In this document: positions 35,411 to 51,071 of the stretch, piece after piece
Layout: every line of letters starts with the position of its first letter
Position numbering within the stretch: the first letter of the stretch is position 1
IMG/VR virus record: IMGVR_UViG_3300042935_001404
DNA from: a virus
Lineage: Duplodnaviria > Caudoviricetes
Length of the DNA stretch: 64,000 nt
Strand: one strand, 5' to 3'
The notes under the pieces: generated by a model
Database searches by the model: none
What the model saw: the letters and a program-made list of their open reading frames with translations, nothing else
What the model was told of the DNA's origin: nothing
Translations under genes and position numbers: made by a program

Positions 35411-35484
35411 TGGAGCGGAGTGAGAGAATCGAACTCTCGACCGAAGATTGGAAATCTGCTGTTTTGCCATTAAACTAACCCCGC
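35411..35484 (-). tRNA. tRNA-Gly(TCC)
   Basis: cloverleaf GCGGGGT..TTCCAA..GTTCGATTC..TCCA. Confidence 0.93.
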
Positions 35485-35493
35485 ATACTAACT

Positions 35494-35568
35494 TGGTACC
35501 TGGACACGGTTTCGAACCGCGGACCCTCTCCGTGTAAAGGAGACGCTCTACCCCTGAGCTATCCAGGC
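35494..35568 (-). tRNA. tRNA-Val(TAC)
   Basis: cloverleaf, TCTCC-TTTACAC-GGAGA, CCA. Confidence 0.93.
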
Positions 35569-35581
35569 TTCTATTCTACTT

Positions 35582-35655
35582 TGGTCTCGGTAGCAGGAAT
35601 CGAACCTACGCTCGAACGTCCCAAACGTTCAGTGATACCATTTCACCATACCGAG
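35582..35655 (-). tRNA. tRNA-Pro(TGG)
   Basis: cloverleaf, GAACG-TTTGGGA-CGTTC, CCA. Confidence 0.93.
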
Positions 35656-35661
35656 AAAAAC

Positions 35662-35814
35662 TTAACTGGGAATTATATGAGGCAAATACGGAACTGCTCT
35701 AGGACCGTGCAGTTGTTGCAACAACTTACGAGCCTCTTCTGCAGAGTCAGCACCCACACGAGCCTTAAACTCTCGACCATCTGGTCCTCTAACTGTTGCT
35801 TCGTATAATTTCAT
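35662..35814 (-). CDS. 50-aa small protein MKLYEATVRGPDGREFKARVGADSAEEARKLLQQLHGPRAVPYLPHIIPS
   Basis: hand-translated ORF between tRNAs. Confidence 0.6.
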   Translation of the reverse strand: MKLYEATVRGPDGREFKARVGADSAEEARKLLQQLHGPRAVPYLPHIIPS

Positions 35815-35829
35815 TTTGTAACTTTAAAA

Positions 35830-35904
35830 TGGTGCCCAATGTCTGATTCGAACAGACGACCTACCGCTTACAAGGCGGTTGCTCTACCCCTGAGCCAATC
35901 GGGC
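35830..35904 (-). tRNA. tRNA-Thr(TGT)
   Basis: cloverleaf, anticodon loop CTTGTAA, CCA. Confidence 0.93.
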
Positions 35905-35922
35905 GTGTTTCTATTTATAGAC

Positions 35923-36008
35923 TGGTGCGAGTGGCCGGAATCGAACCGGCACGCCATTACAGCGGCAGATTTTAAGTCTGCTGTGGCTACCGATTACACC
36001 ACACTCGC
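35923..36008 (-). tRNA. tRNA-Leu(TAA)
   Basis: long variable arm, GCAGA-CTTAAAA-TCTGC, CCA. Confidence 0.93.
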
Positions 36009-36025
36009 ATTTCTAACTTGTATAT

Positions 36026-36054
36026 ATTATACAATAAATCGAGTTAATTGTCAA
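36026..36054 (-). promoter_or_regulatory. sigma70 promoter TTGACA-17-TATAAT for tRNA sub-cluster
   Basis: perfect consensus just upstream of tRNA-Leu. Confidence 0.85.
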
Positions 36055-36064
36055 CCAGAAGAGA

Positions 36065-36571
36065 TTAACTGTTTAGGACTTTGGCAACCGAATTCATCAC
36101 TGCGGCAATACGTCCAATATCACGAAGCTGTTCTACTGTGTAGCCTTCTTGCTTGAGTGTTTCGTAATGTGCCTTAACACAGAAGTGGCACCGGCCAACA
36201 ATACTTGCGGCCAAACTAAATGCTTCAAAGTTTGATTTGGTAGTTCCACCATGTGATGCAATAGCGTTCATGCGTAACTGTGCTGGCAGTCCTTTTAGAG
36301 CAGGATCATCAGCCATTTCAATGTAAGGATACCACACATTGTTCTGTGCCATGATGCTGGCAGCAGTCATTGCTGACTCTGCGTGTACCGGAGCATCTGC
36401 TAAAATTACTGATAGGATCTTTCCGTTACCAGTTGCGGCCAATGCGGCCACGGCACAACCCATAGCCACATCTGCATCTAATGTACTACGCAAAAGTACT
36501 GCATCAAGATTTAACTTGGTGTCCTTTGCGTAGTCTGGCAATGCACCTTTGACGGCGTCGATGAAACTCAT
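36065..36571 (-). CDS. ahpD: alkylhydroperoxidase AhpD family
   Basis: YAKDTKLNL, CHFC redox motif with downstream His; near ahpC. Confidence 0.88.
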   Translation of the reverse strand: MSFIDAVKGALPDYAKDTKLNLDAVLLRSTLDADVAMGCAVAALAATGNGKILSVILADAPVHAESAMTAASIMAQNNVWYPYIEMADDPALKGLPAQLRMNAIASHGGTTKSNFEAFSLAASIVGRCHFCVKAHYETLKQEGYTVEQLRDIGRIAAVMNSVAKVLNS

Positions 36572-37260
36572 TATTTTCTATCTCCAAACAGTTGTAACAG
36601 ATTGATAAACAAGTTGATAAAGTCCATGTACAAAGTCAATGCTCCGCGAATTTCTGCCGAGTCACTGGTTTCTACTGACAGTTCTTCACGAATCTTCTGT
36701 GTGTCGTAAGCAGTTAATCCCAGAAAGATAATGATAGCCAGTGCGGAGATCACCATCTGCATCACGGTGCTGCCAATAAAGATGTTAACAATACTGGCAA
36801 TCACGATGGCAATTAAGCCAACAAACATGAACTTGCCCATGCTGTCTAGACTTTGTTTGGTAAAGTAGCCATAGCCACTCATTACTGCAAACAAGATGCC
36901 TGCACCCATAAATGCTGACACAATACTACCCATAGTGAACACAGCAAAGATCATGGAAAAACTCAAGCCCATTAAGGCCGCAAATCCATGCAAGCATAAC
37001 TGTGCTACGCCTTTGCTGGGATTATTACCTAGCACATAGCTGACACCAAAGATGGCCGCAAGTGGTGAAAAGATCACAATCCATTTTATCCAACCTGTAA
37101 AAAAGAATGCCAGTAACTCTGGACTAGATCCCACAAAGTAACTCACAAACATTGATACAATCACAGCAAGACTCATGTGTCCATACACACGGCCCATTGC
37201 TGAATTAATTTCGCTGGCAGAACGATATGCAATTCCACCTGTATAACTTGTTCCAAACAT
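36571..37260 (-). CDS. Bax inhibitor-1/YccA family membrane protein
   Basis: multiple TM segments, TAYDTQ, ALTLYMDFINLF. Confidence 0.92.
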   Translation of the reverse strand: MFGTSYTGGIAYRSASEINSAMGRVYGHMSLAVIVSMFVSYFVGSSPELLAFFFTGWIKWIVIFSPLAAIFGVSYVLGNNPSKGVAQLCLHGFAALMGLSFSMIFAVFTMGSIVSAFMGAGILFAVMSGYGYFTKQSLDSMGKFMFVGLIAIVIASIVNIFIGSTVMQMVISALAIIIFLGLTAYDTQKIREELSVETSDSAEIRGALTLYMDFINLFINLLQLFGDRK

Positions 37261-37270
37261 GATTTTCTCC

Positions 37271-37894
37271 TTAAAATTTACCTGATGCCAATACGATTTG
37301 ACAAATATGTTCTAATCGTTCAATGTGTTCAAATGCCCGCCACGGGCTTGTATCAATGGCCACAACTCCGTGACCTTTGATGCCTACGATGTCAAAACCA
37401 ATTGTGCCATCTTTTCTTAGCCAGAGATTTTCATGACAACGGTCTGCAAGCTCTTGACTGATAGGAGGTACATCTCCTACGTTCTTGGCCACTCGAGTAT
37501 ATCTACTTAGTTCTGGAAAGTCATCAACTATAGTGCTCAAGTCAATGCCGGCGTGCATAGCAGCCACACAGTATGTAGGATGTAAATGAACCACTACTCT
37601 AACATCAGTGCTGTGCTGACCCATTGCTCGTTGTAGGCCAAAATGTAGAGGAATTTCTCCGCTGGGCTTGAGATTGGCACTGATATCAGAGTAAGGCTCT
37701 TCTTTCCATGCCAAACTGCTTACAATCTTGATCTTCTTGAACTGGTCAGGTTGCATGGTCTGCTTACGAACGCCACTGGGTGTGATATAAAAGTGATCAC
37801 GGTCGTGATGACGAATGCTCACATTGCCATCACGACTGGTAATCCAGTTGCGTCTATATGCTTCAACCAGTGTGTCGCATATAGTTTCTAACAT
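37271..37894 (-). CDS. class II aldolase/adducin family protein
   Basis: GNVS, ITPSG, E..LH, VHLHP, GHGVV. Confidence 0.9.
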   Translation of the reverse strand: MLETICDTLVEAYRRNWITSRDGNVSIRHHDRDHFYITPSGVRKQTMQPDQFKKIKIVSSLAWKEEPYSDISANLKPSGEIPLHFGLQRAMGQHSTDVRVVVHLHPTYCVAAMHAGIDLSTIVDDFPELSRYTRVAKNVGDVPPISQELADRCHENLWLRKDGTIGFDIVGIKGHGVVAIDTSPWRAFEHIERLEHICQIVLASGKF

Positions 37895-38433
37895 TACAGT
37901 GTCTCGCCACCAACTGTACGGTTACAAGCACAAAGCTCGCCAGTTTGTAGTGCATCCAATACACGAAGTGTTTCTTCTGGGCTACGACCAACGTTCAAGT
38001 TGTTGACAGTAACGTGTTGGATAACGTTCTCTGGGTCAACAATGAATGTGGCACGAAGTGCGGCGCCTGCTGGAGCATAGAACACGCCCAACTGTTCAAT
38101 CAAACTCAACTCACCACGCTGTGTGTCAGCATACTGGTGATGGGTGATCTTCTTTAGATCTGCGTGTGCTGTTTGCCATGCTACTTTGCAGAACTCATTG
38201 TCTGTGCTACCAGTGAGCAGGACTGCATCACGGTCAGCAAAGTCTTGTGTTAGTTTGTCGTAGGCTACGATTTCTGTAGGGCAAACGAATGTAAAGTCTT
38301 TTGGATAGTAAACGATTACTTTCCACTTGCCTTCAAAACTTGTTTCAGTGATGGTATAGAAAGCGTCTTCTGGTTGTCCGGGCTTAACGCCTGTGACTGC
38401 AAATGGGGCTAATTTGTCGCCAACTGTTTTCAT
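37894..38433 (-). CDS. ahpC: peroxiredoxin AhpC
   Basis: YPKDFTFVCPTE, RATFIVD, GELC. Confidence 0.95.
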   Translation of the reverse strand: MKTVGDKLAPFAVTGVKPGQPEDAFYTITETSFEGKWKVIVYYPKDFTFVCPTEIVAYDKLTQDFADRDAVLLTGSTDNEFCKVAWQTAHADLKKITHHQYADTQRGELSLIEQLGVFYAPAGAALRATFIVDPENVIQHVTVNNLNVGRSPEETLRVLDALQTGELCACNRTVGGETL

Positions 38434-38488
38434 AATATCTCCTTTGTGTTGAATGAAAATGTTTGCAGAAGTTTTTCTGCATGTGTAT

Positions 38489-38574
38489 ATTGTACAGTTA
38501 TTTACATGAGAAATCGACCATCTCTCATGGTTTCTACTGAATATATTTCTATGGCAGCCATAGAAAAAATCAAT
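38489..38574 (-). promoter_or_regulatory. ahpC promoter (TCGATT-17-TACAAT) with upstream OxyR-like site
   Basis: ATTG-N7-CTAT-N7-ATAG-N7-TTCA at 38574-38538. Confidence 0.5.
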
Positions 38575-38600
38575 AAAGAAAACCCGCTAAAGCGGGTTTG
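38575..38600 (-). terminator. intrinsic terminator after porin
   Basis: AAACCCGC-TTTA-GCGGGTTT followed by TCTTT. Confidence 0.7.
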
Positions 38601-38619
38601 AAATCTACGTTGTGTTAAA

Positions 38620-39645
38620 TCAGAAACTATGTGACAATCCAATGTAACTAGCTGTACCTATGTTTGCAGTATCGGCTGCACCAGCGGCAGTTACAGCTTG
38701 CTTGGTATCTGATAAAAACGCTTCAAGTTTAGTACGCTTGCTGAAAGAATACACTGCGCGAACGCCTGTAACACCCTTCTTAGTGTTGGCAGCACCATTG
38801 GCACCAATGTTTACATTGTTAGACAACTTAGACAAAGACACATCTAACTTGGCATTAACTGGAACTTTAATGCCGTACTCAGTTGACTTATGAGCTGCCA
38901 TAGAAGTCAAATTGTCTTTTTGATTCATTTGGTTAACTGCAACTTCTGCAAATCCAAAATTGTAAGCGGCGTTGATAGTTTGCAACTTTTCAGCATTGAG
39001 ACCAGTGATATTAGCAACTTGAGCTTTTAATCCTCCTGCTGAATAGTTAACACCAATGACGTTCACATCATTCATCAACGTTGCTGTGGTTGTAGTGGCA
39101 AAACCATTGCCAGGGACCACTACATATTTGTTATGTCTGCCCTTGGCGTTTAATAAAAATACCTCTGCACCAGCAATCTTAGGCGAAGTGTATTGCACTT
39201 GTGCAGAATTGCGACCATAATTCAAGCCAGAATGGGTACCTTTAGACCAGTCTTGCATATAATGGCCGGCACCGTTTGTGCTGACCAACTGAGTAGAGAA
39301 ACGACCTAATTTAACATTGCCGAACTTGCTATCCACAAAAATATTAGACTGTTCCCACAATTGAGTGTTGGCGTCACCAGTTGATGAATTAGCATATGAC
39401 CCTTGTGCACCAGTTTCGGAACTAAAACGATTTTGTAAAAAAATACCAACTTTGGTACCACCGCCTAAGTCTTCAGCGGCACTAAAGTTTAAATAATTAC
39501 GGTCACCTTTGGCAGCGCCAACGGTAGTAACTCCGGCAGCAGACCTTGCTACACCATATTGAACCTGACCAGAAATTGTCACGGTTGATTGTGCAAGGAC
39601 AGCAGTAGATACAGTCAATGCTAAGATTGCGAAGATTTTCTTCAT
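38620..39645 (-). CDS. Gram-negative outer-membrane porin
   Basis: signal peptide; VTISG..YG, EDLGGG, YxFSKRT, C-terminal GLSHSF. Confidence 0.92.
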   Translation of the reverse strand: MKKIFAILALTVSTAVLAQSTVTISGQVQYGVARSAAGVTTVGAAKGDRNYLNFSAAEDLGGGTKVGIFLQNRFSSETGAQGSYANSSTGDANTQLWEQSNIFVDSKFGNVKLGRFSTQLVSTNGAGHYMQDWSKGTHSGLNYGRNSAQVQYTSPKIAGAEVFLLNAKGRHNKYVVVPGNGFATTTTATLMNDVNVIGVNYSAGGLKAQVANITGLNAEKLQTINAAYNFGFAEVAVNQMNQKDNLTSMAAHKSTEYGIKVPVNAKLDVSLSKLSNNVNIGANGAANTKKGVTGVRAVYSFSKRTKLEAFLSDTKQAVTAAGAADTANIGTASYIGLSHSF

Positions 39646-39778
39646 TAGTTTTTCCTTTAGATTAAATTAAAATCAACAGATTGTCGACTTTATCAACAGA
39701 CTGTCGATATAATATTTAGTCACGCAACATGATCCCTGACTTTTTGTCAACGAAATCCATCAAAAATAGAGGTTCTGC

Positions 39779-41098
39779 TTATTGAGATCTTAACCACTGA
39801 ATTAGTCGTCGATGTAAATTATAAAGTTTTTTACTAGATCCTGGATCTTGTTTTAATATTTTTTTTCGTATCGCTCTTCGAAATATGCCACGTGGTTTTT
39901 TGACGAGTCGAAATGCATCTATAAAATTTGTTTTTAATTCTTCAATTACCTGTTGTTGAAATGCATCGCTAAAAAAATGTTTTTTGTTAAAATCCGCTAT
40001 GCGTCTAATTTCTAGTAAAAATTGATCAAACTCCGGTGCGCCAAGAGAATTAATTTTATTCAGGCTGTTGATAATTTTTTCAAGTCTTAACAAACTATTT
40101 GTCTCTTGATCATAACTTTCGTCAATCCAAGGAGCAAATGTTCGAAATCCGTAACTTCTTAGATATTCTAAACTATGCGGGCCTGCTGCCAACACAAATG
40201 GATGTCCGCAGGCAATTGGTCTCAGTATCTTTTCTGTCAAGTGAATTCTTGAGTCGTCAAATATAGTTTCCAAAACTACACTTATTGCAGTTGAATTAAA
40301 ATCATCATGATTGTACTGTGCGCTTTCGTTGCTGTCACTGTGATTGTCTTCAAACAGATCTAGTACAGTGCTGTCTTTGAGCGCAAAATTAATATTTTTA
40401 AATTTGTGGTCCCGGTAATGATACCCTTGATCGCCTTCGGACCGTCTTGATATACTGATTTTACTTTGTTCATGCAATCCATGTTTGACCAACAACTCTA
40501 TAAACTTTAATCTGTATTCTCTAGTGTTGCCCCAGGCACGATTGTATATTAGGAATTTTTTACAAACTTGAGATTGCGTTGTTAGCCGAGTATCTATCTC
40601 GGCAAATCTATACCAGTCACGAGCAATAATTGCATGGCACCAATAATAAACTGGTAAAAAATTATTTTGAGAATACTGTTCTAAGTCAACAGAATTTTTT
40701 TCAGAATGCAGTAAAATTGCCTGTTCATAAAGAGATCCACACAACAATGGTATTGACAATAAATTTTTATCAACCGCCGCTTGACTACTTATTTTGGCCA
40801 CAGTGGGTTCGTTTAATGCAATGTGTAATGACACAGGATCAATATTTGTATAAAAATTATAATGCAATGGCTCTTGGTCGTGTGCAACAACTGGAATGTT
40901 AATAAAATATGTTAGGCCGTCAACACCATTGGCGCCAAGAGCAGTCAATGCATCAAGATCAGTTAATGTATCAATATCAGTCAATGGTCTGAGGTCAGAA
41001 ATATCTTTACTACCGTGAGGATAAAATCTGTAAAATGCTGTCGGAACAGGTATAATCGATTGCACCCAGTGGTACAAATTGTCTAAGGGAATGTTCAT
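39779..41098 (-). CDS. putative glycosyltransferase-like protein (ET..TEK family)
   Basis: VVLETIF..LTEKILRPI..GHPF..GFRTF..DESYD. Confidence 0.45.
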   Translation of the reverse strand: MNIPLDNLYHWVQSIIPVPTAFYRFYPHGSKDISDLRPLTDIDTLTDLDALTALGANGVDGLTYFINIPVVAHDQEPLHYNFYTNIDPVSLHIALNEPTVAKISSQAAVDKNLLSIPLLCGSLYEQAILLHSEKNSVDLEQYSQNNFLPVYYWCHAIIARDWYRFAEIDTRLTTQSQVCKKFLIYNRAWGNTREYRLKFIELLVKHGLHEQSKISISRRSEGDQGYHYRDHKFKNINFALKDSTVLDLFEDNHSDSNESAQYNHDDFNSTAISVVLETIFDDSRIHLTEKILRPIACGHPFVLAAGPHSLEYLRSYGFRTFAPWIDESYDQETNSLLRLEKIINSLNKINSLGAPEFDQFLLEIRRIADFNKKHFFSDAFQQQVIEELKTNFIDAFRLVKKPRGIFRRAIRKKILKQDPGSSKKLYNLHRRLIQWLRSQ

Positions 41099-41121
41099 GC
41101 CATTGGATTTTGTCTTTGAAT

Positions 41122-41435
41122 AAAAGGTAATTTAATTCTGTTACGAGGATAAATTACCAAAAACCCTAGGCAGTGTTTAGACTGCCAATGCTTCCTTGGC
41201 TGTACGAGCAGAGAACTTGACGTTCTTACCAGAAACAGTTACGGTTTTGTTTACGTTTGCATTTACGTTTTTTGCTTGATTAACGGTCATCGCCTACCGT
41301 GCTGTCCACTTGTTTACTTGTTGCCCTGTCGAATCTAGTGCTCCCCCACCTAAATATACTGAATACATTTAGGTGGAGGAGGGGGGATTCGCACCCCCGT
41401 CCAAGACACTTTTCTCTTTGCTTCATACAGCAATA
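41122..41435 (-). ncRNA. ssrA: circularly permuted (two-piece) tmRNA
   Basis: acceptor piece ..GGACGGGGGTGCGAATCCCCC CTCCTCC A (ends ~41374) precedes coding piece GGGGGAG CACTAGATTCGAC (starts 41347); 7-bp acceptor stem with G3:U70; tag ORF 41260-41177. Confidence 0.9.
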
Positions 41436-41440
41436 ACTCT

Positions 41441-41448
41441 TATTTATA
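41441..41448 (-). promoter_or_regulatory. T4-like late promoter TATAAATA upstream of tmRNA
   Basis: exact octamer; also seen at 28204-28211, 35912-35919, 51055-51062 (-) and 44887-44894 (+). Confidence 0.55.
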
Positions 41449-41450
41449 AT

Positions 41451-41525
41451 TGGTTGCGGGGGAAGGACTCGAACCTCCGGCTTCCAGGTTATGAGCCTGG
41501 CGGTCTACCACTGACGTACCCCGCG
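41451..41525 (-). tRNA. tRNA-fMet(CAT), initiator type
   Basis: C1:A72 mismatch, CCAGG-CTCATAA-CCTGG, CCA. Confidence 0.88.
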
Positions 41526-41531
41526 ATAAAT

Positions 41532-41621
41532 TGGCGGAAGCGGTGAGATTCGAACTCACGAGGGACGTTGATCCCTGCTGGGTTAGTAATCCAGTGCCAT
41601 CGGCCACTCGGCCACGCTTCC
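41532..41621 (-). tRNA. tRNA-Ser(ACT), rare A34 anticodon
   Basis: long variable arm, G73, loop TT-ACT-AA, CCA. Confidence 0.85.
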
Positions 41622-41631
41622 TGCAGTTGTT

Positions 41632-41865
41632 TTATGGCAAAATTTCGCTAGATACCACACCAGGTTGTGTGGCCGCCCAGTTCGTATATTCAGTTGCTTT
41701 CTCAAGTGTGGGCCATGTTCTTTCCCATATTGTATCACCGTTTTCGAGAGTTGTAAATGTTGGGAACTCACCCACGCCGTTTGGCCATGCTAAAGATATA
41801 AGAACATCTCTTGCCTCATTTGTCAATGAGGTTCCTGCTTCCACAACTATTTTTGTTTTAATCAT
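41632..41865 (-). CDS. hypothetical protein
   Basis: ORF with SD AGGA. Confidence 0.6.
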   Translation of the reverse strand: MIKTKIVVEAGTSLTNEARDVLISLAWPNGVGEFPTFTTLENGDTIWERTWPTLEKATEYTNWAATQPGVVSSEILP

Positions 41866-44686: not shown

Positions 44687-44692
44687 ATACTC

Positions 44693-44848
44693 TTACTTGC
44701 GTTCTTTAGACGAGAATGATGCAGGTGTTGCCTGTGCGTCAATCATGGCTCTTTTAAATCCGTTGCGATCGTGTTGATCTTTAAACTTTAACAATGCCAT
44801 CAATGTTTTTGTTCGTTTGCTGAGTTTAAATGTAGATGTTGTTTTCAT
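44693..44848 (-). CDS. 51-aa basic small protein MKTTSTFKLSKRTKTLMALL..
   Basis: hand-translated; SD AAGGA upstream. Confidence 0.6.
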   Translation of the reverse strand: MKTTSTFKLSKRTKTLMALLKFKDQHDRNGFKRAMIDAQATPASFSSKERK

Positions 44849-44899
44849 TTGTTTCCTTTGGGGTATTTATTTGGGTTAAATTGCGATATAAATATCTGT

Positions 44900-45085
44900 A
44901 TGCAAACGCAAACACAAGATTTTATTTCAGTTAGTGGACATCTACAAGTGCATCTGTCACTCAGTGAGTATAACACATCTTATATTTTTGTCAATGATAT
45001 TTTCAATGATCGGCTAATTATGCGTTACTTTGGTGATCATGAATCTGCAGTCAACTGGATCAAGACTCTTAAAGACCACTATTGA
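44900..45085 (+). CDS. hypothetical protein antisense to tRNA operon
   Basis: TATAAATA at 44887-44894 directly upstream of ATG. Confidence 0.55.
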   Translation: MQTQTQDFISVSGHLQVHLSLSEYNTSYIFVNDIFNDRLIMRYFGDHESAVNWIKTLKDHY

Positions 45086-45093
45086 TCACATGC

Positions 45094-45169
45094 TGGGGAG
45101 AAGTATGGGAATTGAACCCATATTAACGGAATCACAATCCGTGGTGTTGACCTTTACACTAACTACTCC
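45094..45169 (-). tRNA. tRNA-His(GTG)
   Basis: G-1:C73, ACGGA-TTGTGAT-TCCGT. Confidence 0.92.
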
Positions 45170-45173
45170 GTGT

Positions 45174-45248
45174 TGGTCTCGCTTGCAAGAATCGAACTCA
45201 CATTCAAGAGGTAGAAGCTCTTTGTATTATCCATTATACTAAAGCGAG
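45174..45248 (-). tRNA. tRNA-Arg(TCT)
   Basis: AAGAG-CTTCTAC-CTCTT, CCA. Confidence 0.9.
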
Positions 45249-45250
45249 AA

Positions 45251-45328
45251 TGGCAGAGGGTACTGGATTCGAACCAGTGATCATGGAGTCAAAGTCCAAT
45301 GCTTTAGGCCAAACTAAGCTAACCCCCA
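45251..45328 (-). tRNA. tRNA-Gln(TTG)
   Basis: loop CTTTGAC, G73, CCA. Confidence 0.9.
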
Positions 45329-45339
45329 GTAATAATTGT

Positions 45340-45413
45340 TGGAGCGGGATAGGAGAATCGAACTCCTGACTAAACCTTGGCAAGGTTTCGTTTGACCATT
45401 AAACTAATCCCGC
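45340..45413 (-). tRNA. tRNA-Gly(GCC)
   Basis: AAACC-TTGCCAA-GGTTT, U73, CCA. Confidence 0.93.
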
Positions 45414-45416
45414 ATG

Positions 45417-45491
45417 TGGTGGTGATGAGTAGAGTCGAACTACCACCGGACTCCGTATGAAGGAGGCGCACTACCGTTATGCTACATCACC
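45417..45491 (-). tRNA. tRNA-CAT (elongator Met or Ile2, not resolved)
   Basis: fully paired acceptor GGTGATG, loop TTCATAC, CCA. Confidence 0.85.
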
Positions 45492-45493
45492 GA

Positions 45494-46228
45494 TCAGTCG
45501 AAGTAGTATTCGAGATCAGAGAGACCGACCACGTTAGAATAATCTAAGCCGTGTATGTAAGACTCGCGACGCAAGTCATTTCCGGGCACCAAGTCTCGGC
45601 GAATGTGTGTCAGTTCCATACATCCAAAAACGCCATCAGTGTCATAGCTCACGTGATTGTTGCCGTGTACGTGTACAATGGCATAGTGCTCTTGCCACCG
45701 CTCCACAGCCTGGTGCCATTGTTTGCTACGATTGGCACAGTTGTGCCATTCCATTGCAACGCCTACAATGCGATCGCGATGTTGTACGATGCTTTCAATC
45801 AAACTGTATTCACCACCTTCGATGTCCATCTTGATGAACACCTGGTCTACGCCCATTCTGTCTAGGGCCCGAACAAAATTTTCTGGCCCAATAAACTCTG
45901 GCCAATGTTTTACGTTATCTTGAAAGAATTCATCGTACATGGCTCGAATATCCAAGTGTCCACGAACCGGCGTATTGATGCTGATACGCATGGTATCTCT
46001 AGTGACACTGGCATCATACATCTGAATCGGATCTGTAGGTTTGAGATTATGCCAGTCTTGATCAAATGTAAAATCGTCACCTAGTCCAAAACTTAACAGA
46101 CCCTGTGCTTGGTCCACTGCTGAACGTGGCAAAATGTAGCCGCCGTCCATTTTTCCACCTAATCTAATTAGGTCAGGCACTGCAACAGGGCAGAGCCAAT
46201 GTAGTTCTTGGGGTAGTTTAATTTTCAT
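45494..46228 (-). CDS. FkbM-like SAM-dependent methyltransferase
   Basis: RLGGKMDGGY, SFGLGDDFTF, FIKMDIEGGE. Confidence 0.7.
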   Translation of the reverse strand: MKIKLPQELHWLCPVAVPDLIRLGGKMDGGYILPRSAVDQAQGLLSFGLGDDFTFDQDWHNLKPTDPIQMYDASVTRDTMRISINTPVRGHLDIRAMYDEFFQDNVKHWPEFIGPENFVRALDRMGVDQVFIKMDIEGGEYSLIESIVQHRDRIVGVAMEWHNCANRSKQWHQAVERWQEHYAIVHVHGNNHVSYDTDGVFGCMELTHIRRDLVPGNDLRRESYIHGLDYSNVVGLSDLEYYFD

Positions 46229-46346
46229 AATTTTATTTATTAACTGGTTTTACACACCATATAAAAGCACACTATATGCGCCCTGGTTGTTAAGCGCCAC
46301 TAACAGCCTGCAACCACGCAGGGTAGCCGTGTAATGTGCTTTTATA

Positions 46347-46420
46347 TGGTAGGGGTGCAGGGGAACGATCCCTGTTTTACGGATTAAAAGTCCGTTACTT
46401 CACCTTAAAGTTTCACCCCC
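46347..46420 (-). tRNA. tRNA-Lys(TTT)
   Basis: ACGGA-CTTTTAA-TCCGT; atypical T-loop ATCGTTC; CCA. Confidence 0.88.
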
Positions 46421-46543
46421 TAATGGGCTTTGTTTTTGTGCTCGACGCAGAGCCTTGTTGCTCTTACGATGCGAACCTGCTTTGCGGAACAGTGCAAGAC
46501 GAACGAAGCAGTTACGTTCGCGCACGATCGATTTACGTTTCAT
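46400..46543 (-). CDS. 47-aa highly basic small protein whose stop codon lies inside tRNA-Lys (ArfA/BrfA-like candidate)
   Basis: SD AAGGA; MKRKSIVRERNCFVRLALFRKAGSHRKSNKALRRAQKQSPL then GGETLR* from tRNA sequence. Confidence 0.6.
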   Translation of the reverse strand: MKRKSIVRERNCFVRLALFRKAGSHRKSNKALRRAQKQSPLGGETLR

Positions 46544-46562
46544 ACAGTTTCCTTTTATAAAA

Positions 46563-46638
46563 TGGTGGAGGATAACGGATTCGAACCGTTTGCTCCTGGT
46601 TGCAAACCAGGTGTGTTAGCCAAGTATACCAATCCCCC
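46563..46638 (-). tRNA. tRNA-Ala(TGC)
   Basis: G3:U70, CCTGG-TTTGCAA-CCAGG, CCA. Confidence 0.93.
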
Positions 46639-46639
46639 A

Positions 46640-46875
46640 ATATGCTCTGCATCCCCCGGCGGTAATTATAGAGTATCAACATAGATTAATCCGGAATCTA
46701 ACTCAACTAAGGTTAGCGATTCTATGCATCACACACTCCTTCCACCCGCTTCCCGACAGGGACCGTTATCGCATTGCTAGCGGCCTTTTGGTAAGAAGAC
46801 TACCACCCTTGAGTAACGAACTCACTTCTCTCGTACGGGTCATACTAGCCAGGCGTTACCCCGACGGGTTCTTCT
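46640..46875 (-). ncRNA. unidentified multi-helix structured RNA
   Basis: nested helices incl. GAGTGT/ATACTC, GCATAGA/TCTATGT, GGTGG/TTACC, CCTGGC/GCCGGG with G.U pairs on minus strand; no ORF in track. Confidence 0.55.
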
Positions 46876-46907
46876 CTCAAATAAGCATAAGCATAGTATT
46901 CTTTCAT
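46845..46907 (-). pseudogene. N-terminal remnant resembling a GIY-YIG (Seg-like) homing endonuclease
   Basis: MKEYYAYAYLREE then 7 unrelated residues and stop. Confidence 0.45.
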
Positions 46908-46923
46908 ACCTTGACGAGAATCT

Positions 46924-47685
46924 TTACAACCTAGATTCTATCATAGGAGCAATAAAATCAGCAATCTGAATATGAGCTTTTTCTGTAGGATGATGTGATA
47001 TTGGATTTAACAATCCAATATCAACTAAAAACGCTACTCTATTGGAGTCTACAACCCAATTTGAATAATGATAGTTGTTATCAACATTTTTCATGTTATT
47101 TCTCAAACACAATTGTGACATTAAATCTCTATCAGGTATATCAATCATATTGTCGATGGGTTGATGATACAGATGATGATTAAATGTATCAACCCATATA
47201 TTTTTGACCCCCATTGACTTATAAAAAACATTCCAAAAATTCATCTCAACTTCTAATTGTTGTACTTCGTGATTATGATCATATGAATGTTTAACCATAA
47301 ACTCGCTAAATTTATTTGGCATATTATATTTGCAATGTAACACAGACATTGTGTCTAAATCAAAAAATACATTTCGAGCAGTTGATGTGATTGCATGCAA
47401 TACAATAATTTTATCATATGTTTCTTGATCACATTTGAAATCAATTTTACTAAAATATCTTTTAGCATAATTAAATTGAGCTTGATTACTGCTTCCACCA
47501 TGTGCAAAATTTTTGTTATCTAATGCAAAATTTTTAGACAAAACACCACGAAATGATTTTGTCCCACAAATGTCTGAATTCCATGCAATAGAATTATACA
47601 CAGCAGTGGATTGCTCAATTTGATATCCTACACCAACTCCATAGGTCCAACTGCACCCAAACGTGATAAGCAAATTTTTATTCAT
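46924..47685 (-). CDS. SGNH/GDSL-hydrolase-like protein
   Basis: FGCSWTYG, NFAHGGSSN, SHHPTE. Confidence 0.55.
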   Translation of the reverse strand: MNKNLLITFGCSWTYGVGVGYQIEQSTAVYNSIAWNSDICGTKSFRGVLSKNFALDNKNFAHGGSSNQAQFNYAKRYFSKIDFKCDQETYDKIIVLHAITSTARNVFFDLDTMSVLHCKYNMPNKFSEFMVKHSYDHNHEVQQLEVEMNFWNVFYKSMGVKNIWVDTFNHHLYHQPIDNMIDIPDRDLMSQLCLRNNMKNVDNNYHYSNWVVDSNRVAFLVDIGLLNPISHHPTEKAHIQIADFIAPMIESRL

Positions 47686-48334
47686 GTTTTTGTAGTACCA
47701 TTCTTAATGTTCCCTCGGCCATGTTAGATCCAATATGAGTATCATCAAGTTCAAAACACAAAATCTCATCTCTAAAAATTTCAATTTGATCACGTATGTA
47801 TGTTGATGCAGTATTTTTTATTTCTGTAGTCTCTGCACCTATCATATGACACACATTCATCATGATAAAAATTTTACCACCTGGTTTGGTCATTTGTAAG
47901 ACTTGATTGATCCTGTTAGAAAATTGCGACAATGGAATAAAATGCAAAGCATTCATACTCATGATATTTTCAAATTTTTCTGTATTTTCCTTGACAAACG
48001 CATCATCTACAAACCCAACCTGGTCAGCATAAAAATTTAATGATTTTGAATCAATGCCGATTATGTTTGGAATATATTTTTTATATATGTTCCACCCACA
48101 TCCAATATCATAAATTTTAGAGCTTGATGCTAATTGTAAAATATAGTAAAAAGGAACCATTGAAAATATTCTTTTGCCACGATATTCGCGCGGCGTCATT
48201 CCCATAAAGCCCAAAGTTGGTATATTAGTTTCCCAAGTCAACAAATCAAAATCTTGTTTTACGTTACGTGCCAAATCAGTTGATTCAAAGCTTTTTCGAA
48301 AATTTTCTAAGTTATATGCGTTTAAATTGTTCAT
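47678..48334 (-). CDS. class I SAM-dependent methyltransferase-like protein
   Basis: IYDIGCG, IGIDS, SMNALHF, KPGG. Confidence 0.7.
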   Translation of the reverse strand: MNNLNAYNLENFRKSFESTDLARNVKQDFDLLTWETNIPTLGFMGMTPREYRGKRIFSMVPFYYILQLASSSKIYDIGCGWNIYKKYIPNIIGIDSKSLNFYADQVGFVDDAFVKENTEKFENIMSMNALHFIPLSQFSNRINQVLQMTKPGGKIFIMMNVCHMIGAETTEIKNTASTYIRDQIEIFRDEILCFELDDTHIGSNMAEGTLRMVLQKHE

Positions 48335-48353
48335 ACATTATATATGATAGATA

Positions 48354-48438
48354 TGGTGGAGATGATAGGGATCGAACCTATTGTGACCGAAGTCGGAAGA
48401 TTTACAGTCTCCTGCCATACCATTACGGCGGCATCTCC
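48354..48438 (-). tRNA. tRNA-Tyr(GTA)
   Basis: long variable arm, CTGTAAA loop, CCA. Confidence 0.93.
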
Positions 48439-48443
48439 ATGTC

Positions 48444-48518
48444 TGGTACTCGATAGCGGAGTCGAACCGCTCTTGCCTGGATGAAAACCAGATGTCCTAA
48501 CCGATAGACGAATCGAGC
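48444..48518 (-). tRNA. tRNA-Glu(TTC)
   Basis: TCTGG-TTTTCAT-CCAGG, CCA. Confidence 0.92.
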
Positions 48519-48597
48519 AAAAAGAGGAGAGCCACGGTTGCAGGACCTAGTGTCTCGTTGCCGAGAGAAGTGTCCAGGCGATGTGGCTCTCAAAACT

Positions 48598-48672
48598 TGG
48601 CGGTCTGTGGGGGAATCGAACCCCCGTAAGTGGATAGACAATCCACAGTAATAACCTCTATACGAACAGACC
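48598..48672 (-). tRNA. tRNA-Asp(GTC)
   Basis: GTGGA-TTGTCTA-TCCAC, G73, CCA. Confidence 0.92.
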
Positions 48673-48680
48673 AAAATCTA

Positions 48681-48895
48681 CTATTTTAAAACATACTAAA
48701 GGAACCATTGTGCATCTATGTCTACCTATAGGACCGTCTCCTATAGACCTGCACGGTCATTACTGCCTACATGCTCCGCCGCTTTTCTGGACATTTCTGC
48801 CCGGTTTCATGGACCTAGCTTGAGCGTGGGCGGCCCCACAGTCCTCGCCTTAGATCCCTAACGGTGTAGGTAACCTTTAATACGTTTTAAAATAG
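48681..48895 (-). ncRNA. unidentified 215-nt structured RNA with 22-bp closing stem
   Basis: 48895-48874 pairs 48702-48681 (two G.U on minus strand); inner hairpins GTGGG/CCCAC, GGGCA-GAAA-TGTCC, CTATAGGA/TCCTATAG. Confidence 0.6.
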
Positions 48896-48926
48896 CAACC
48901 CTTACGGGTTACCAAAAACAACAACT

Positions 48927-48959
48927 TTTTAAAGAACGTCTAGTTAATTTCCTAACTAG
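48927..48959 (-). promoter_or_regulatory. rrn-type boxB-boxA antitermination signal
   Basis: CTAGTTAG-GAAA-TTAACTAG hairpin followed by CGTTCTTTAAAA. Confidence 0.65.
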
Positions 48960-48964
48960 TCTCT

Positions 48965-48993
48965 AGTATAACACAATGGCTATATCTAGTCAA
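48965..48993 (-). promoter_or_regulatory. sigma70 promoter TTGACT-17-TATACT
   Basis: consensus boxes, TG upstream of -10. Confidence 0.8.
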
Positions 48994-49062
48994 TTTGTTT
49001 TGCAAAGTCCCTACACTGTGTAGGGTTATTTGCAGATCCAGCTAATTTCTTAACTTGTTTCT

Positions 49063-49091
49063 ATTGTAGCAAAATGGCGTTTAATTGTCAA
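49063..49091 (-). promoter_or_regulatory. sigma70 promoter TTGACA-17-TACAAT (tandem upstream)
   Basis: consensus boxes. Confidence 0.8.
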
Positions 49092-49132
49092 CTTAGTACT
49101 TTAGTATACCCTACGCACTGTAGGGTTATTAT

Positions 49133-49206
49133 TGGCGTACCTCCAAGGACTCGAACCTTGACTGACGGTTTTGGAGACCGCGGTGCTGCCATTACACCAG
49201 AGATAC
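49133..49206 (-). tRNA. tRNA-Trp(CCA)
   Basis: GCGGT-CTCCAAA-ACCGT, G73, CCA. Confidence 0.92.
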
Positions 49207-49213
49207 ATTAAAT

Positions 49214-49287
49214 TGGTAGCCTGTCAAGGTAACGATCCTTGGTCGCTCGATTATCAGTCGAGTGCTCTACCTTTGAGCTAACGGGCT
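49214..49287 (-). tRNA. tRNA-Ile(GAT)
   Basis: CTCGA-CTGATAA-TCGAG; atypical T-loop ATCGTTA. Confidence 0.88.
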
Positions 49288-49292
49288 ATGAT

Positions 49293-49367
49293 TGGCGGGT
49301 CCTGCAGGAATCGAACCCACACCGCTTGGTTCGAAGCCAAGCATGATATCCATTTCACCAAGGACCC
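49293..49367 (-). tRNA. tRNA-Arg(TCG)
   Basis: CTTGG-CTTCGAA-CCAAG, CCA. Confidence 0.92.
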
Positions 49368-49372
49368 TTAAC

Positions 49373-49462
49373 TGGCGGTGCGACTCGGATTCGAACCGAG
49401 AACCCGGATTACGCCGAGCGACAGATTAGCAATCTGCTCTAATACCATTATAGGACCACACC
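49373..49462 (-). tRNA. tRNA-Ser(GCT)
   Basis: long variable arm, TTGCTAA loop, G73. Confidence 0.92.
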
Positions 49463-49468
49463 GTTGTT

Positions 49469-49560
49469 TGGCGGAAGACGGAGGAGTCGAACCCCATCCC
49501 TGTTAAGAGAACCTGGTTTTCAAGGCCAGTCGCAGGACCGGTCCCGCTGCATCATCTTCC
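49469..49560 (-). tRNA. tRNA-Ser(TGA) with 8/4 acceptor/T-stem architecture
   Basis: acceptor GGAAGATG/CGTCTTCC (8 bp), T-stem GGGG/CCTC (4 bp), loop CTTGAAA, G73. Confidence 0.82.
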
Positions 49561-49569
49561 TAAAATGTG

Positions 49570-50331
49570 TTAAAGATTTTTAAAAACTTTTTTTATAATT
49601 GCACTGCGATCCAGTTTGGAACTGGCACCCAGCACAATGACTGCGTACTGTTGTTTGTTGTGTTCTACCAGCATGGCCACACACCATCCAGCAAGATTAG
49701 TAAATCCAGTCTTGCTCACGTCCACACGGGTAAACTCTGCCAACAGTGGACGGGATGTGTGAACCAGGTTCACAGAGCTGCCGCCTATTTTGTCAAGTTT
49801 TTTCAACAGCACAGTTGACTGCCCACTGGCTTCTTGTATAAACCAATAGTTGGCAGCAATCTGTACCATTTCTATTAGATCCCGTGCAGTGGACACATTG
49901 AACACACCCAGGCCTGACGGATCTACAAATTTAGTATTTCGAAGATTCCACATCCGGGCATGTCGATTCATTTCAGCTACAAAGGCAGATCGGCCTCCGG
50001 GGTAGTTCTGTGCAATGGTTTCGGCTGCTCCGTTGTCACTGCTGACCAGCATGGCCAGCAACAACTGTTCTCTGGTGTACCTGCCGGGCGGCAATCGACT
50101 GCCGGTGTTTTTTCTCAGCACCAACTGCTGTTGAAGATCTCTGTTGTGATCCAATGCAACCATGGCAGTCATCAACTTGGTCACACTGGCCATTGATCTG
50201 ATTTGATCACTATTTTGACTCAGTTCCGTGCGCTGTGCATTGATGTTGTAGACCAACACTGTGGGCTCACGTGCGTGGGCCGTTGCATTGGATAAAACTG
50301 TACAAAAAAGTACTGCGGCAAATAATTTCAT
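49570..50331 (-). CDS. D-alanyl-D-alanine carboxypeptidase/endopeptidase (peptidase S11)
   Basis: signal peptide; ASVTKLMTA (SxxK), SDN, KTG. Confidence 0.92.
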   Translation of the reverse strand: MKLFAAVLFCTVLSNATAHAREPTVLVYNINAQRTELSQNSDQIRSMASVTKLMTAMVALDHNRDLQQQLVLRKNTGSRLPPGRYTREQLLLAMLVSSDNGAAETIAQNYPGGRSAFVAEMNRHARMWNLRNTKFVDPSGLGVFNVSTARDLIEMVQIAANYWFIQEASGQSTVLLKKLDKIGGSSVNLVHTSRPLLAEFTRVDVSKTGFTNLAGWCVAMLVEHNKQQYAVIVLGASSKLDRSAIIKKVFKNL

Positions 50332-50349
50332 ATCTTTATTTTGTAAAAT

Positions 50350-50424
50350 TGGAACACAGGACAGGACTCAAACCTGCATGATACGGATTTGCAATCCGTT
50401 GCGTAATCATTCCGCCACCTGTGC
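50350..50424 (-). tRNA. tRNA-Cys(GCA)
   Basis: ACGGA-TTGCAAA-TCCGT, U73, CCA; atypical D/T loops. Confidence 0.85.
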
Positions 50425-50575
50425 ATATACGTCGAACACACTGTTTCCAATGTGTGTATTAAAGCACTCTAAAATACTTAGGCTGCCTGTTCTTAAAGAA
50501 TGCTTTAATACGAACTAATTTTTCCTCCCACACAAGGGATTCCATCCTAGTCGCCGCCCGTTCGTGCTTGTTTAT

Positions 50576-50605
50576 AGTGTAGCACAGGACCTCGTTTCCT
50601 GTCAA
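50576..50605 (-). promoter_or_regulatory. possible sigma70 promoter TTGACA-18-TACACT
   Basis: boxes upstream of tRNA-Cys. Confidence 0.5.
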
Positions 50606-50616
50606 CACTTTAGGAT

Positions 50617-50778
50617 TTATGTCCAAAGTTGATTCTTGACTCGCATGCGAGTTTCGAGTTCCAACCTAGCACGTTCCAACTTTTCCCGAATCAACTTTTC
50701 ACGTTGTTCCGGTGTCAGTGTGTGCTCTGTTGTGTACTTTACTTCACGCATTCGTTGTTTTAAATCTAATTTCTTCAT
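50617..50778 (-). CDS. 53-aa charged small protein MKKLDLKQRMREVKYTTEHTL..
   Basis: hand-translated; SD AAGGA just after terminator. Confidence 0.6.
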   Translation of the reverse strand: MKKLDLKQRMREVKYTTEHTLTPEQREKLIREKLERARLELETRMRVKNQLWT

Positions 50779-50790
50779 TTTTCCTTTTCT

Positions 50791-50828
50791 AAAAACAAAA
50801 AACCCTAGGGTTTTTAATCCTAGGGTCC
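50791..50828 (-). terminator. intrinsic terminator (attenuator-type)
   Basis: ACCCTAGG/CCTAGGGT stem followed by TTTTTGTTTTT. Confidence 0.8.
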
Positions 50829-50853
50829 TTGGAGTTTGTGTGTAAACTTTTAT

Positions 50854-50994
50854 TTACGACATGGTCTCCTGGACCCTGGTACCCTCTGGTGTGCGATCAT
50901 ATGACATGCTATTGATTGCCGACCAAATAGAGGGCGCGAAGCCGGCCTGTTTGGCTAAACAATTTGATATAGAATGTAATACGTTTGTTTGCAT
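50854..50994 (-). CDS. 46-aa putative leader peptide MQTNVLHSIS..SYDRTPEGTRVQETMS
   Basis: between promoter and terminator; contains anti-terminator strand AGGGTCC. Confidence 0.55.
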   Translation of the reverse strand: MQTNVLHSISNCLAKQAGFAPSIWSAINSMSYDRTPEGTRVQETMS

Positions 50995-51042
50995 TTTTGT
51001 TTCTTTAAATTTATATACACCTTTTTATTGGCGCATGTGTGT

Positions 51043-51071
51043 ATTGTATAGGTTTATTTATACAAGGTCAA
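51043..51071 (-). promoter_or_regulatory. sigma70 promoter TTGACC-17-TACAAT with nested TATAAATA
   Basis: boxes and late motif at 51055-51062. Confidence 0.7.

Follow-up and report, generated by a model that had tools for sequence, protein, structure and literature searches.

Huge phages that carry many tRNAs, a transfer-messenger RNA (tmRNA) and SmpB have already been described (Al-Shayeb et al. 2020, PMC7162821), two-piece tmRNAs are reported to be typical of aquatic phages (53 among 18,146 phage genomes, 50 of them aquatic; PMC9004378), and a tRNA-Ser of the (8/4) type has been reported inside phage tRNA clusters (Mukai et al., PMC5389517). Here, we have analysed a 64,000-nucleotide stretch of viral DNA (IMG/VR record IMGVR_UViG_3300042935_001404; the whole stretch is called the window below) in which a large tRNA set, a two-piece tmRNA and an (8/4) tRNA-Ser lie on the minus strand between positions 35411 and 51071, together with a small open reading frame (ORF) fused to tRNA-Lys(UUU), two unnamed structured RNAs and a candidate attenuator. 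A sequence-only reading had proposed that this region is an integrated, coordinated counter-measure to host defences, which senses ribosome stalling, replaces tRNAs and clears stalled ribosomes.

The window resembles the translation repertoires of huge phages (PMC7162821) in belonging to a genome of more than 200 kb with tens of tRNAs and a tmRNA, for which the role proposed is to sustain or redirect host translation. It differs in that neither the window nor five complete relatives yielded an SmpB, a release factor or any other translation protein, and in that it adds the tRNA-fused small ORF and the unnamed RNAs, which go unmentioned in the translation-related passages of that account. The composite of huge phage, near-complete tRNA set and tmRNA has thus already been described and is not a new system. 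The value of the locus is carried by three unannotated elements, namely the ORF-tRNA-Lys(UUU) module, whose small-ORF family comprises more than 1000 protein clusters and is strongly conserved, an abundant RNA family of phage tRNA islands, here called R1, which combines covariation with very high apparent abundance in lake RNA libraries, and a tmRNA with a long tag. Supplementation of tRNAs, ribosome rescue, attenuation and gating by trans-translation are roles that we infer for these parts.

Distribution of the island's parts among related phages

We consider it likely that the region belongs to a lytic huge phage from fresh water, whose genome of about 350 kb has terminal repeats, and that it forms a hypervariable island of stable RNAs. 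The island would be a mosaic of short, separately promoted units whose modules have been gained, lost and moved independently of one another, and not one obligate sensing-and-rescue machine. The tRNAs, other RNAs and small ORF concerned are these:

35411-36008 (-): tRNAs Gly(UCC), Val(UAC), Pro(UGG), Thr(UGU) and Leu(UAA), found by ARAGORN and Rfam; 12/12 sigma-70-like promoter at 36054-36026
41157-41432 (-): circularly permuted (two-piece) tmRNA; ARAGORN permuted call, RF04321, RF01850
41451-41525 (-): initiator-type tRNA-Met
41532-41621 (-): tRNA-Ser(ACU), present too in the related loci L007-L011 and the distant relative G008
42408-42492 (-): tRNA-Leu(UAG), found by ARAGORN
44611-44686 (-): tRNA-Asn, found by ARAGORN and Rfam
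45094-45491 (-): tRNAs His, Arg(UCU), Gln, Gly(GCC) and Met(CAU), found by ARAGORN and Rfam
46347-46420 (-): tRNA-Lys(UUU), the invariable 3' partner of the small ORF
46400-46543 (-): small basic ORF P0001, with 41 codons (46421-46543) before tRNA-Lys +1 and a Shine-Dalgarno (SD) motif, AAAGGA
46563-46638 (-): tRNA-Ala(UGC), found by ARAGORN
46639-46872 (-): R1, a multi-branched RNA of about 205-235 nt that ends at tRNA-Ala +1; covariation, RNA depth
48354-48672 (-): tRNAs Tyr, Glu and Asp, found by ARAGORN
48690-48915 (-): second structured RNA, between tandem promoters and tRNA-Asp; folding, paired changes
49133-49462 (-): tRNAs Trp, Ile, Arg(UCG) and Ser(GCU), found by ARAGORN
49469-49560 (-): non-canonical (8/4) tRNA-Ser(UGA) of Sec-like shape, with G73 and an encoded CCA; fold and alignment to the tRNA-Sec model
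50350-50424 (-): tRNA-Cys(GCA); separate promoter-like site at 50605-50576

The genome is that of a free huge phage and not a prophage, since its closest complete relative (G002; 346,856 bp) has direct terminal repeats, nothing in the window resembles chromosomal flanks, and those of its larger predicted proteins that were scanned gave no match to an integrase or to bacterial housekeeping families. G002 also carries 27 tRNAs and a tmRNA in the same order as the window. If 'integrated' in the sequence-only reading was meant to denote a prophage, the term is therefore not supported. That the region might be a prophage or a bacterial chromosomal tRNA island, with its RNAs being host genes, is highly improbable; its porin, TctC, AhpC and DD-carboxypeptidase genes do look bacterial, but this is set against the complete relative with terminal repeats, the failure to match integrase or housekeeping families, and the viral nature of all its relatives. 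The latter is seen with a 439-aa protein encoded beside the tmRNA: its 42 related loci in IMG/VR all lie on viral contigs, which are up to 374 kb long. Lake metagenomes hold contigs near-identical to the window, and its FEN-type nuclease has its nearest relatives in the jumbo phages PA5oct, Hallingskeid and fHe-Yen9. When the island was compared with GenBank phages by megablast, matches were limited to tRNA-sized pieces, and tblastn of the 439-aa protein against the same phages gave no match.

In the window and its four close relatives the parts lie together and point the same way, and these five genomes share a tRNA backbone that is conserved apart from insertions and deletions (indels). A tRNA-Phe(GAA) lies between Ser and Arg in L007 and L011 and has been lost in the window, and among the five genomes tRNA-Thr(GGU) is confined to L010 and L011. 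Relatives separated by such indels, which also involve a porin gene, the genes for TctC and a 377-aa protein, and a gene pair in the methyltransferase region, share 71-94% identity in the 439-aa protein. Outside the window's subgroup the linkage itself breaks. Of three complete relatives, two (G006 and G008) have about 110 kb between the tRNAs and the tmRNA, and the tmRNA persists even where there are only 3-12 tRNAs:

G006 (complete): 33 tRNAs at 298-317 kb; tmRNA at 186 kb
G008 (complete): 12 tRNAs at 184-202 kb; tmRNA at 72 kb
G007 (fragment, 44%): tRNA island, with the tmRNA 3 kb from it
G009 (63% complete): 3 tRNAs, with the tmRNA 20 kb away

The small ORF is absent from G006 and G007, both of which possess the tmRNA and tRNA-Lys(UUU), and the ORF-tRNA-Lys module and R1 are found in other phage lineages beside different neighbours. 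Judged by synteny, the parts recur in this phage group but move independently. Co-occurrence and synteny across relatives were the check that the sequence-only reading had put forward for itself, and the outcome is independent distribution, which that reading had itself named as counting against a coordinated system.

The promoter-like sites are consistent with this picture. High-scoring sites on the minus strand precede individual tRNA clusters, which argues for several transcription units instead of one operon. The other signals of the island are as follows:

50791-51071 (-): candidate translation-dependent attenuator, with a promoter at 51071-51043, a 46-codon ORF at 50854-50994 and a terminator at 50791-50830
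50866-50879 and 50819-50834 (-): antiterminator strands
50617-50778 (-): 53-aa coiled-coil-like ORF after the attenuator, with 68-98% identity in 15 viral contigs
49091-49063 and 48993-48965 (-): tandem sigma-70-like promoters (11/12 and 10/12, respectively)
48940-48959 (-): hairpin
48927-48938 (-): boxA-like CGTTCTTTAAAA, matching 9/12 positions

A boxB-boxA signal had also been proposed, which is not supported. The window contains 85 boxA-like matches with three mismatches where 83.9 are expected by chance, and although the motif is conserved in five relatives, the flanking sequence is equally so. We therefore rejected an antitermination site of the rrn or lambda kind as a chance-level match. 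A further hairpin element, AATAACCCTAC...GTAGGG, occurs in two copies (49108-49126 and 49009-49025), each just upstream of one of the tandem promoters, and its loop varies between relatives.

The candidate attenuator resembles trp-type leader-peptide attenuators in having a short ORF whose 3' end forms the antiterminator strand competing with an intrinsic terminator, and this layout is kept in more distant relatives. Folded as a free RNA, the leader is predicted to adopt the antiterminator (-27 kcal/mol for that part), and the terminator (-17.3) forms only if everything up to the stop codon is taken away; the diverged homologue in L118 behaves likewise. One compensatory pair is seen in the terminator; the matching antiterminator position reads A-U, G.U, G-C and, in one case, a mismatch. 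The candidate differs from the trp type in lacking tandem regulatory codons and an upstream 1:2 pairing, and in having a conserved peptide core. This core (C-x-AKQAGF-x-P-x-x-WS and DRTPE) is kept across three clades, which is unusual for a pure leader. Without 1:2 pairing, a complete lack of translation should give read-through. Of the attenuator that had been claimed, the anatomy is thus present and the folding energies are plausible, whereas runs of regulatory codons are absent; a translation-dependent switch is a plausible account of the predicted folds.

How the parts might work together can be set out conditionally. For each of 19 amino acids the island would supply one or two isoacceptors, among them an initiator-type tRNA-Met and the 8/4-type tRNA-Ser(UGA), and these would keep phage translation running if host tRNAs were scarce or had been damaged. 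The tmRNA, relying on host SmpB and host CCA addition, would free ribosomes that have stalled on broken mRNAs, and the two structured RNAs would be cut out along with the tRNAs. Where ribosomes do not get to the end of the leader, the leader ORF and terminator may increase read-through. The cargo between the RNA parts (peroxiredoxin, BI-1, porin, TctC and DD-carboxypeptidase) would be host-derived.

A more demanding explanation is that all of this forms one counter-defence system, selected against anticodon nucleases and mRNA-cleaving toxins, in which a leader using all amino acids senses stalling, the tRNAs replace those cleaved, and the tmRNA and an ArfA-like factor clear the ribosomes. The classic target of the anticodon nuclease PrrC is tRNA-Lys(UUU), which fits such a role for the tRNA next to the small ORF. 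The shared location and orientation of the parts in the window and its close relatives also count in its favour, as do the predicted behaviour of the leader, free as antiterminator and forming the terminator only with the ORF end masked, the lack of a stop codon in the small ORF before tRNA-Lys at 48 of 48 loci, and the presence of a tmRNA in all ORF-bearing complete genomes. Against this, the linkage breaks in more distant relatives, the small ORF is lost from relatives that have kept the tmRNA and tRNA-Lys, and it shows no homology to ArfA. The leader lacks runs of regulatory codons and its peptide core is conserved across three clades, unlike that of a pure codon sensor. Separate promoter-like sites and interspersed genes unrelated to translation are likewise not what one system would lead us to expect. 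Taken together with the modules found beside other neighbours and the indels in the cargo, these data do not support a single coordinated system, which we regard as improbable. What stands of the proposal is a concentration of translation-related stable RNAs, a coding tag frame, a leader predicted to switch and an ORF capable of giving a non-stop message; what does not stand is their being a single unit.

Some points weigh against a mosaic of independent modules, or limit how firmly it can be drawn. One element, the attenuator, may really sense translation, because its predicted fold responds to masking of the leader's 3' end. The four genomes that have the ORF and a completeness of 93% or more (G002, G011, G012 and G013) all possess a permuted tmRNA, which is suggestive of some functional coupling of the small ORF with trans-translation; this co-occurrence is not discriminating, because relatives without the ORF also carry a tmRNA. 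The host is assigned indirectly, as probably a betaproteobacterium of the Burkholderiales. The hints are that the beta_tmRNA model (RF01850) matches the island's tmRNA, that the cargo includes a TctC/Bug receptor and a porin, that phages with the small ORF (G011, G015) have tmRNA tags of the ANDERFALAA kind and the relative G008 has ANDEQFALAA, and that the sole match to the small ORF among GenBank phages is Acidovorax phage ACP17. Finally, the RNA depth used below is that of contigs from lake RNA libraries, which sums related organisms and shows neither RNA ends nor strand.

The tRNA set, the two-piece tmRNA and the unnamed RNAs

ARAGORN found 24 tRNAs, all on the minus strand between 35411 and 50424 and together covering 19 amino acids, and no tRNA-Phe anywhere in the 64-kb window. 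Rfam confirms 23 of these, the remaining one, tRNA-Met at 41451-41525, being hidden by clan competition with the beta_tmRNA match. This tRNA-Met has the C1/A72 mismatch typical of bacterial initiators. A twenty-fifth tRNA, missed by ARAGORN, is the Sec-like tRNA-Ser at 49469-49560, and CCA is encoded by all 25. The sequence-only reading had listed 25 CCA-encoding tRNAs for 19 amino acids, with an initiator and without Phe, and in this it was borne out; the (8/4) tRNA-Ser is evidently its twenty-fifth.

In the fold of this tRNA-Ser, the acceptor stem has 8 bp and the T stem 4 bp, giving a 12-bp branch; the D stem, of 6 bp, carries a 4-nt loop, the variable arm is long and there is a G73. Its match to the Rfam tRNA-Sec model (49473-49560) scores 35.2 bits against a gathering score of 47, which is expected because the molecule is not a tRNA-Sec; its anticodon is UGA where tRNA-Sec has UCA. 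All the features that define the (8/4) allo-tRNA-Ser class, namely the acceptor/T branch, the variable arm and G73, are present. The sequence is near-invariant in four relatives, with changes falling nearly all in the D and T loops; the exceptions are a U.G pair of the variable arm that is changed to C-G and a single residue of the D stem, next to its loop. It agrees with the (8/4) allo-type tRNA-Ser of phage tRNA clusters (Mukai et al., PMC5389517) in its stems, variable arm, G73, serine anticodon and location in a phage cluster, and differs in belonging to another phage lineage and in apparently being the sole UCN decoder of its set.

Two further observations concern unusual tRNAs. The tRNA-Ser(ACU) at 41532-41621 has A34 and an A31/C39 mismatch and occurs alongside a normal Ser(GCU); it is seen also at L126:4317. 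Since even the distant relative G008, a complete genome, has kept it, it is probably functional, and it may be an inosine-type or otherwise unusual decoder. In addition, tRNA-Lys (46347-46420) and tRNA-Ile (49214-49287) have atypical T loops, with GATCGTT in place of the usual TTCGAAT-type sequence.

The two-piece tmRNA that had been proposed is confirmed by a permuted call from ARAGORN, by its alanine determinant and by its match to RF04321, which scores 129.9 bits (gathering score 47) and spans model positions 1-213, the full length; RF01850 (beta_tmRNA) scores 96.5 bits. Its components are:

41372-41432 (-): acceptor piece, with the 3' end ACC, then T
41348-41371 (-): intervening hairpin of 24 nt
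41347 (-): start of the coding piece, which begins GGGGGAG
41177-41260 (-): tag frame of 27 codons, ANVNKTVTVSGKNVKFSARTAKEALAV and a stop
41157-41186 (-): terminator-like hairpin closing the coding piece

In the acceptor stem GGGGGAG pairs with CUCCUCC, and the third pair, a G.U, is the G3:U70 alanine determinant. The T arm reads GGGGG-UGCGAAU-CCCCC and the resume codon GCA follows UAAAU. Since the 3' end is encoded as ACC-T, the CCA is incomplete and the terminal A must be added post-transcriptionally. SmpB (PF01668) was found in none of the five complete related phage genomes, where 10 control bacteria were positive, and the tmRNA would therefore depend on SmpB from the host.

The tag is where this molecule departs most from the other phage copies. 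In relatives, its frame shows three or four third-position changes that are synonymous and one or two replacements that are conservative; because the differences are mostly synonymous, it behaves as a translated sequence. The 27-residue tag is basic and ends ALAV, so that the LAA-type proteolysis ending is not present; such an ending is a functional expectation and not a criterion for membership of the class. Nine other phage two-piece tmRNAs carry ordinary tags of 10-14 aa ending in LAA or MAA (for example ANDERFALAA, ANDEQFALAA, ANDSKFALAA and ANASNDEIFALAA), and the long basic tag is therefore special to the window's subgroup. Because the LAA ending is absent, proteins carrying this tag may not be routed to ClpXP. 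Compared with the two-piece tmRNAs of aquatic phages such as OM43 phage Melnitz (PMC9004378), and those of Alpha- and Betaproteobacteria and cyanobacteria, the window's tmRNA shares the acceptor piece upstream of the coding piece, G3:U70 and the GCA resume codon; the differences lie in the 27-residue basic ALAV tag, the ACC-T 3' end and the glutamine riboswitch, which was not detected here in a relaxed Rfam scan of 34500-52500. Insertions of about 385-600 nt are seen at L009:9070-9621 and L011:9139-9739, either between the initiator tRNA-Met and the tmRNA or within the tmRNA's intervening segment.

Several unnamed structured RNAs had also been suggested, and we find good grounds for two of them. 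Neither matches Rfam at E<=1 in the 34500-52500 scan, where the remaining matches are to tRNA and tmRNA or are at chance level. The first, R1, shows clear covariation among five relatives. When other viral contigs were searched with its covariance model, seven more full-length copies, of which six are distinct, were recovered with scores of 154-216 bits. In these copies 93.8% of cells pair and 15 pairs change on both sides, compared with 2-5 in slid controls, and none of 500 shuffles reaches the observed values. The energy test for R1 is negative (minimum free energy z-score +0.75) and, taken alone, would wrongly dismiss an RNA that is supported by covariation and RNA depth. In a common variant, a 70-nt arm is replaced by a GAAA-capped hairpin of 26 nt, and in other contigs R1 may stand upstream or downstream of the ORF-tRNA-Lys module. 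The second RNA, at 48690-48915, folds with z = -4.17 and no shuffle out of 200 folds as well; its diverged homologue in L010 gives z = -3.19, and 11 pairs are retained despite changes on both sides.

In four lake metatranscriptome runs the summed contig depth of the R1 bin was 531, 2724, 631 and 3, rising to about 19,600 at position 46778. The bin at 41141-41671, which holds the tmRNA and two tRNAs, had a depth of 108-795 in three of the four runs and 15 in the fourth. These two bins were the deepest, with the tRNA-cluster bins being variable, bins wholly inside the TctC gene and genes of unassigned function near zero, and those from peroxiredoxin to BI-1 at 0-48.

The tRNA region of phage T4 also contains stable RNAs that are not tRNAs, known as species 1 and 2. 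As in T4, the structured RNAs of the window are set between tRNAs and are probably freed by the same processing. They differ in that no sequence or Rfam relation to species 1 and 2 was detected, and in that R1 is larger and multi-branched.

The small ORF fused to tRNA-Lys(UUU)

The small ORF, which begins MKRKSIVRERNCFVRLALFRKAGSHRKSNKALRRAQKQ, has its only stop codon (TGA) inside tRNA-Lys, and it is 96% identical in DNA among the five close genomes, more so than the flanking genes. An alignment-based scan of IMG/VR gave 45 loci, of which 44 were readable; with the window and three divergent members from other assemblies, 48 loci could be compared. At all 48 the ORF directly abuts tRNA-Lys(UUU) and has no stop before it, the first in-frame stop falling at tRNA position 8, 10, 13, 16, 21, 26 or 30 (seven junction classes). 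The tRNA upstream of the module varies (Ala, Arg(ACG), Gln, Gly, Met, Cys or Lys(CUU)).

This ORF is a real gene under protein-level selection, as is clear from its codon-position signature and its excess of synonymous change. Among 36 distinct core sequences, variable sites at codon positions 1, 2 and 3 number 11, 9 and 25, respectively, and codon differences comprise 5603 synonymous and 2254 non-synonymous. Ser28 alternates between AGC and TCT, Leu positions use five or six codons, and SD-like motifs precede the ORF at 43 of 45 loci. The family comprises 1053 cluster representatives, mostly of 43-48 aa, all named 'hypothetical' and none with a Pfam domain. Within the ORF, codons 9-14 (46503-46520, minus strand) form a run of 18 bases, GAACGTAACTGCTTCGTT, that is near-invariant in the 36 sequences, third positions included, and that with the next base can form a 5-bp hairpin, GAACG/CGTTC. 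The near-invariant third positions and the possible hairpin together suggest an extra, RNA-level constraint.

The sequence-only reading had described an ArfA-like non-stop ORF. A real gene with its stop inside the tRNA stands; the likeness to ArfA in sequence does not. The ORF gave no Pfam match to ArfA (PF03889) at E<=10, matched no PDB chain by phmmer or by profile, and was aligned to E. coli ArfA by hhalign with a probability of 0.14%, and so we rejected it as an ArfA homologue. A likeness of the peptide to ribosomal proteins L34 or S21 was also considered and dropped, there being no such Pfam match, and an ESM Atlas search with the peptide returned unnamed clusters only. A predicted co-fold of the 41-aa peptide with RF2_ECOLI scored 0.00, with the partner at a pLDDT below 30, which speaks neither for nor against binding. 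In the full-text literature, whose coverage leaves out most subscription journals, we found no description of a phage ArfA-type factor or of an ORF fused to tRNA-Lys.

The arrangement fits a message that would become non-stop after cleavage by RNase P. If RNase P cuts at tRNA-Lys +1, the resulting non-stop mRNA could yield a basic peptide of 41 residues that is tagged and removed unless trans-translation is saturated, and which would act on ribosomes or on tRNA-Lys. We hold this to be possible, though short of probable. In its favour are the junction at 48 of 48 loci, with stops at tRNA positions 8-30 and none earlier, the strong coding signature, the SD-like motifs and the 1053 related clusters of similar length. 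On the other hand, the peptide resembles neither ArfA nor any solved chain, the co-fold with RF2 is uninformative either way, and the tmRNA is also found without the ORF. More simply, the unprocessed precursor could be translated, with termination inside the tRNA sequence. Contigs from the lake RNA libraries cover the ORF at low depth, and one of them bridges the ORF and tRNA-Lys. Acidovorax phage ACP17, moreover, has a copy with 62% identity and no tRNA downstream. This unannotated homologue (L101:2480-2640; NC_041997.1, about 151742-151900) is similar over 34 residues, is without an ATG start and overlaps the start of gp245.

The closest functional parallels are ArfA of E. coli and BrfA of B. 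subtilis. They have in common with the window's ORF a small basic protein and a tmRNA in the same genome, and, like theirs, its message would lose its stop through RNA processing. They differ in showing no sequence similarity to it and in being truncated by RNase III cleavage or a terminator where tRNA 5' processing would act here. By analogy with them, the ORF-tRNA-Lys(UUU) module might be a widespread, previously undescribed phage device that has independently evolved the same logic, with tRNA 5' processing producing a non-stop mRNA and the amount of peptide both reporting on, and being gated by, the trans-translation capacity provided by the host or phage tmRNA, and with the peptide acting on stalled ribosomes or tRNA-Lys. 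We offer this wider proposal tentatively and think it rather doubtful. If gating by trans-translation were true, it would represent a new viral way of reading the state of ribosome rescue in the host.

Interspersed and neighbouring genes

The protein-coding genes found between the RNA parts are these:

36065-36571 (-): CMD/AhpD-like protein
36571-37260 (-): Bax1-I/BI-1
37271-37894 (-): class II aldolase
37894-38433 (-): AhpC/TSA peroxiredoxin
38620-39645 (-): Gram-negative porin, absent from L007 and L009
39779-41098 (-): 439-aa protein, function unassigned, conserved in huge-phage contigs; adjoins the tmRNA in close relatives only
41895-42395 (-): PF04308 RNaseH-like protein
42504-43439 (-): TctC/Bug receptor, absent from L009, L010 and L011
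43461-44594 (-): 377-aa protein with no family, absent from L009, L010 and L011
46924-48334 (-): two genes, for a 253-aa protein without a family and a 218-aa methyltransferase-like protein; window's lineage only, absent from four relatives
49570-50331 (-): peptidase S11 D-Ala-D-Ala carboxypeptidase

None of the cargo genes at 36065-39645 relates to translation. The AhpD-like, BI-1, class II aldolase and AhpC genes, followed by that for the porin, make up a host-like cassette within the tRNA island, which amounts to a phage-borne porin and oxidative-stress set. The proteins of 439, 377, 253 and 244 aa were not explained by PHROGs, Pfam or NCBIfam. Elsewhere in the window there are radical-SAM and sugar-modification genes, ThyX, the FEN-type nuclease, MetK and a MoxR/VWA pair, and positions 1-25600 are occupied by a long series of radical-SAM, carbamoyltransferase, aminotransferase and epimerase genes that forms a glycan-tailoring island.

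The PF04308 RNaseH-like protein and a calcineurin-type phosphoesterase recur in or beside the tRNA islands of unrelated viral contigs (window 41895-42395 and 33691-34293; L122:4502-5095; L124:3794-4282 and 5639-6132), and these two proteins might take part in the processing or repair of tRNAs or other stable RNAs.

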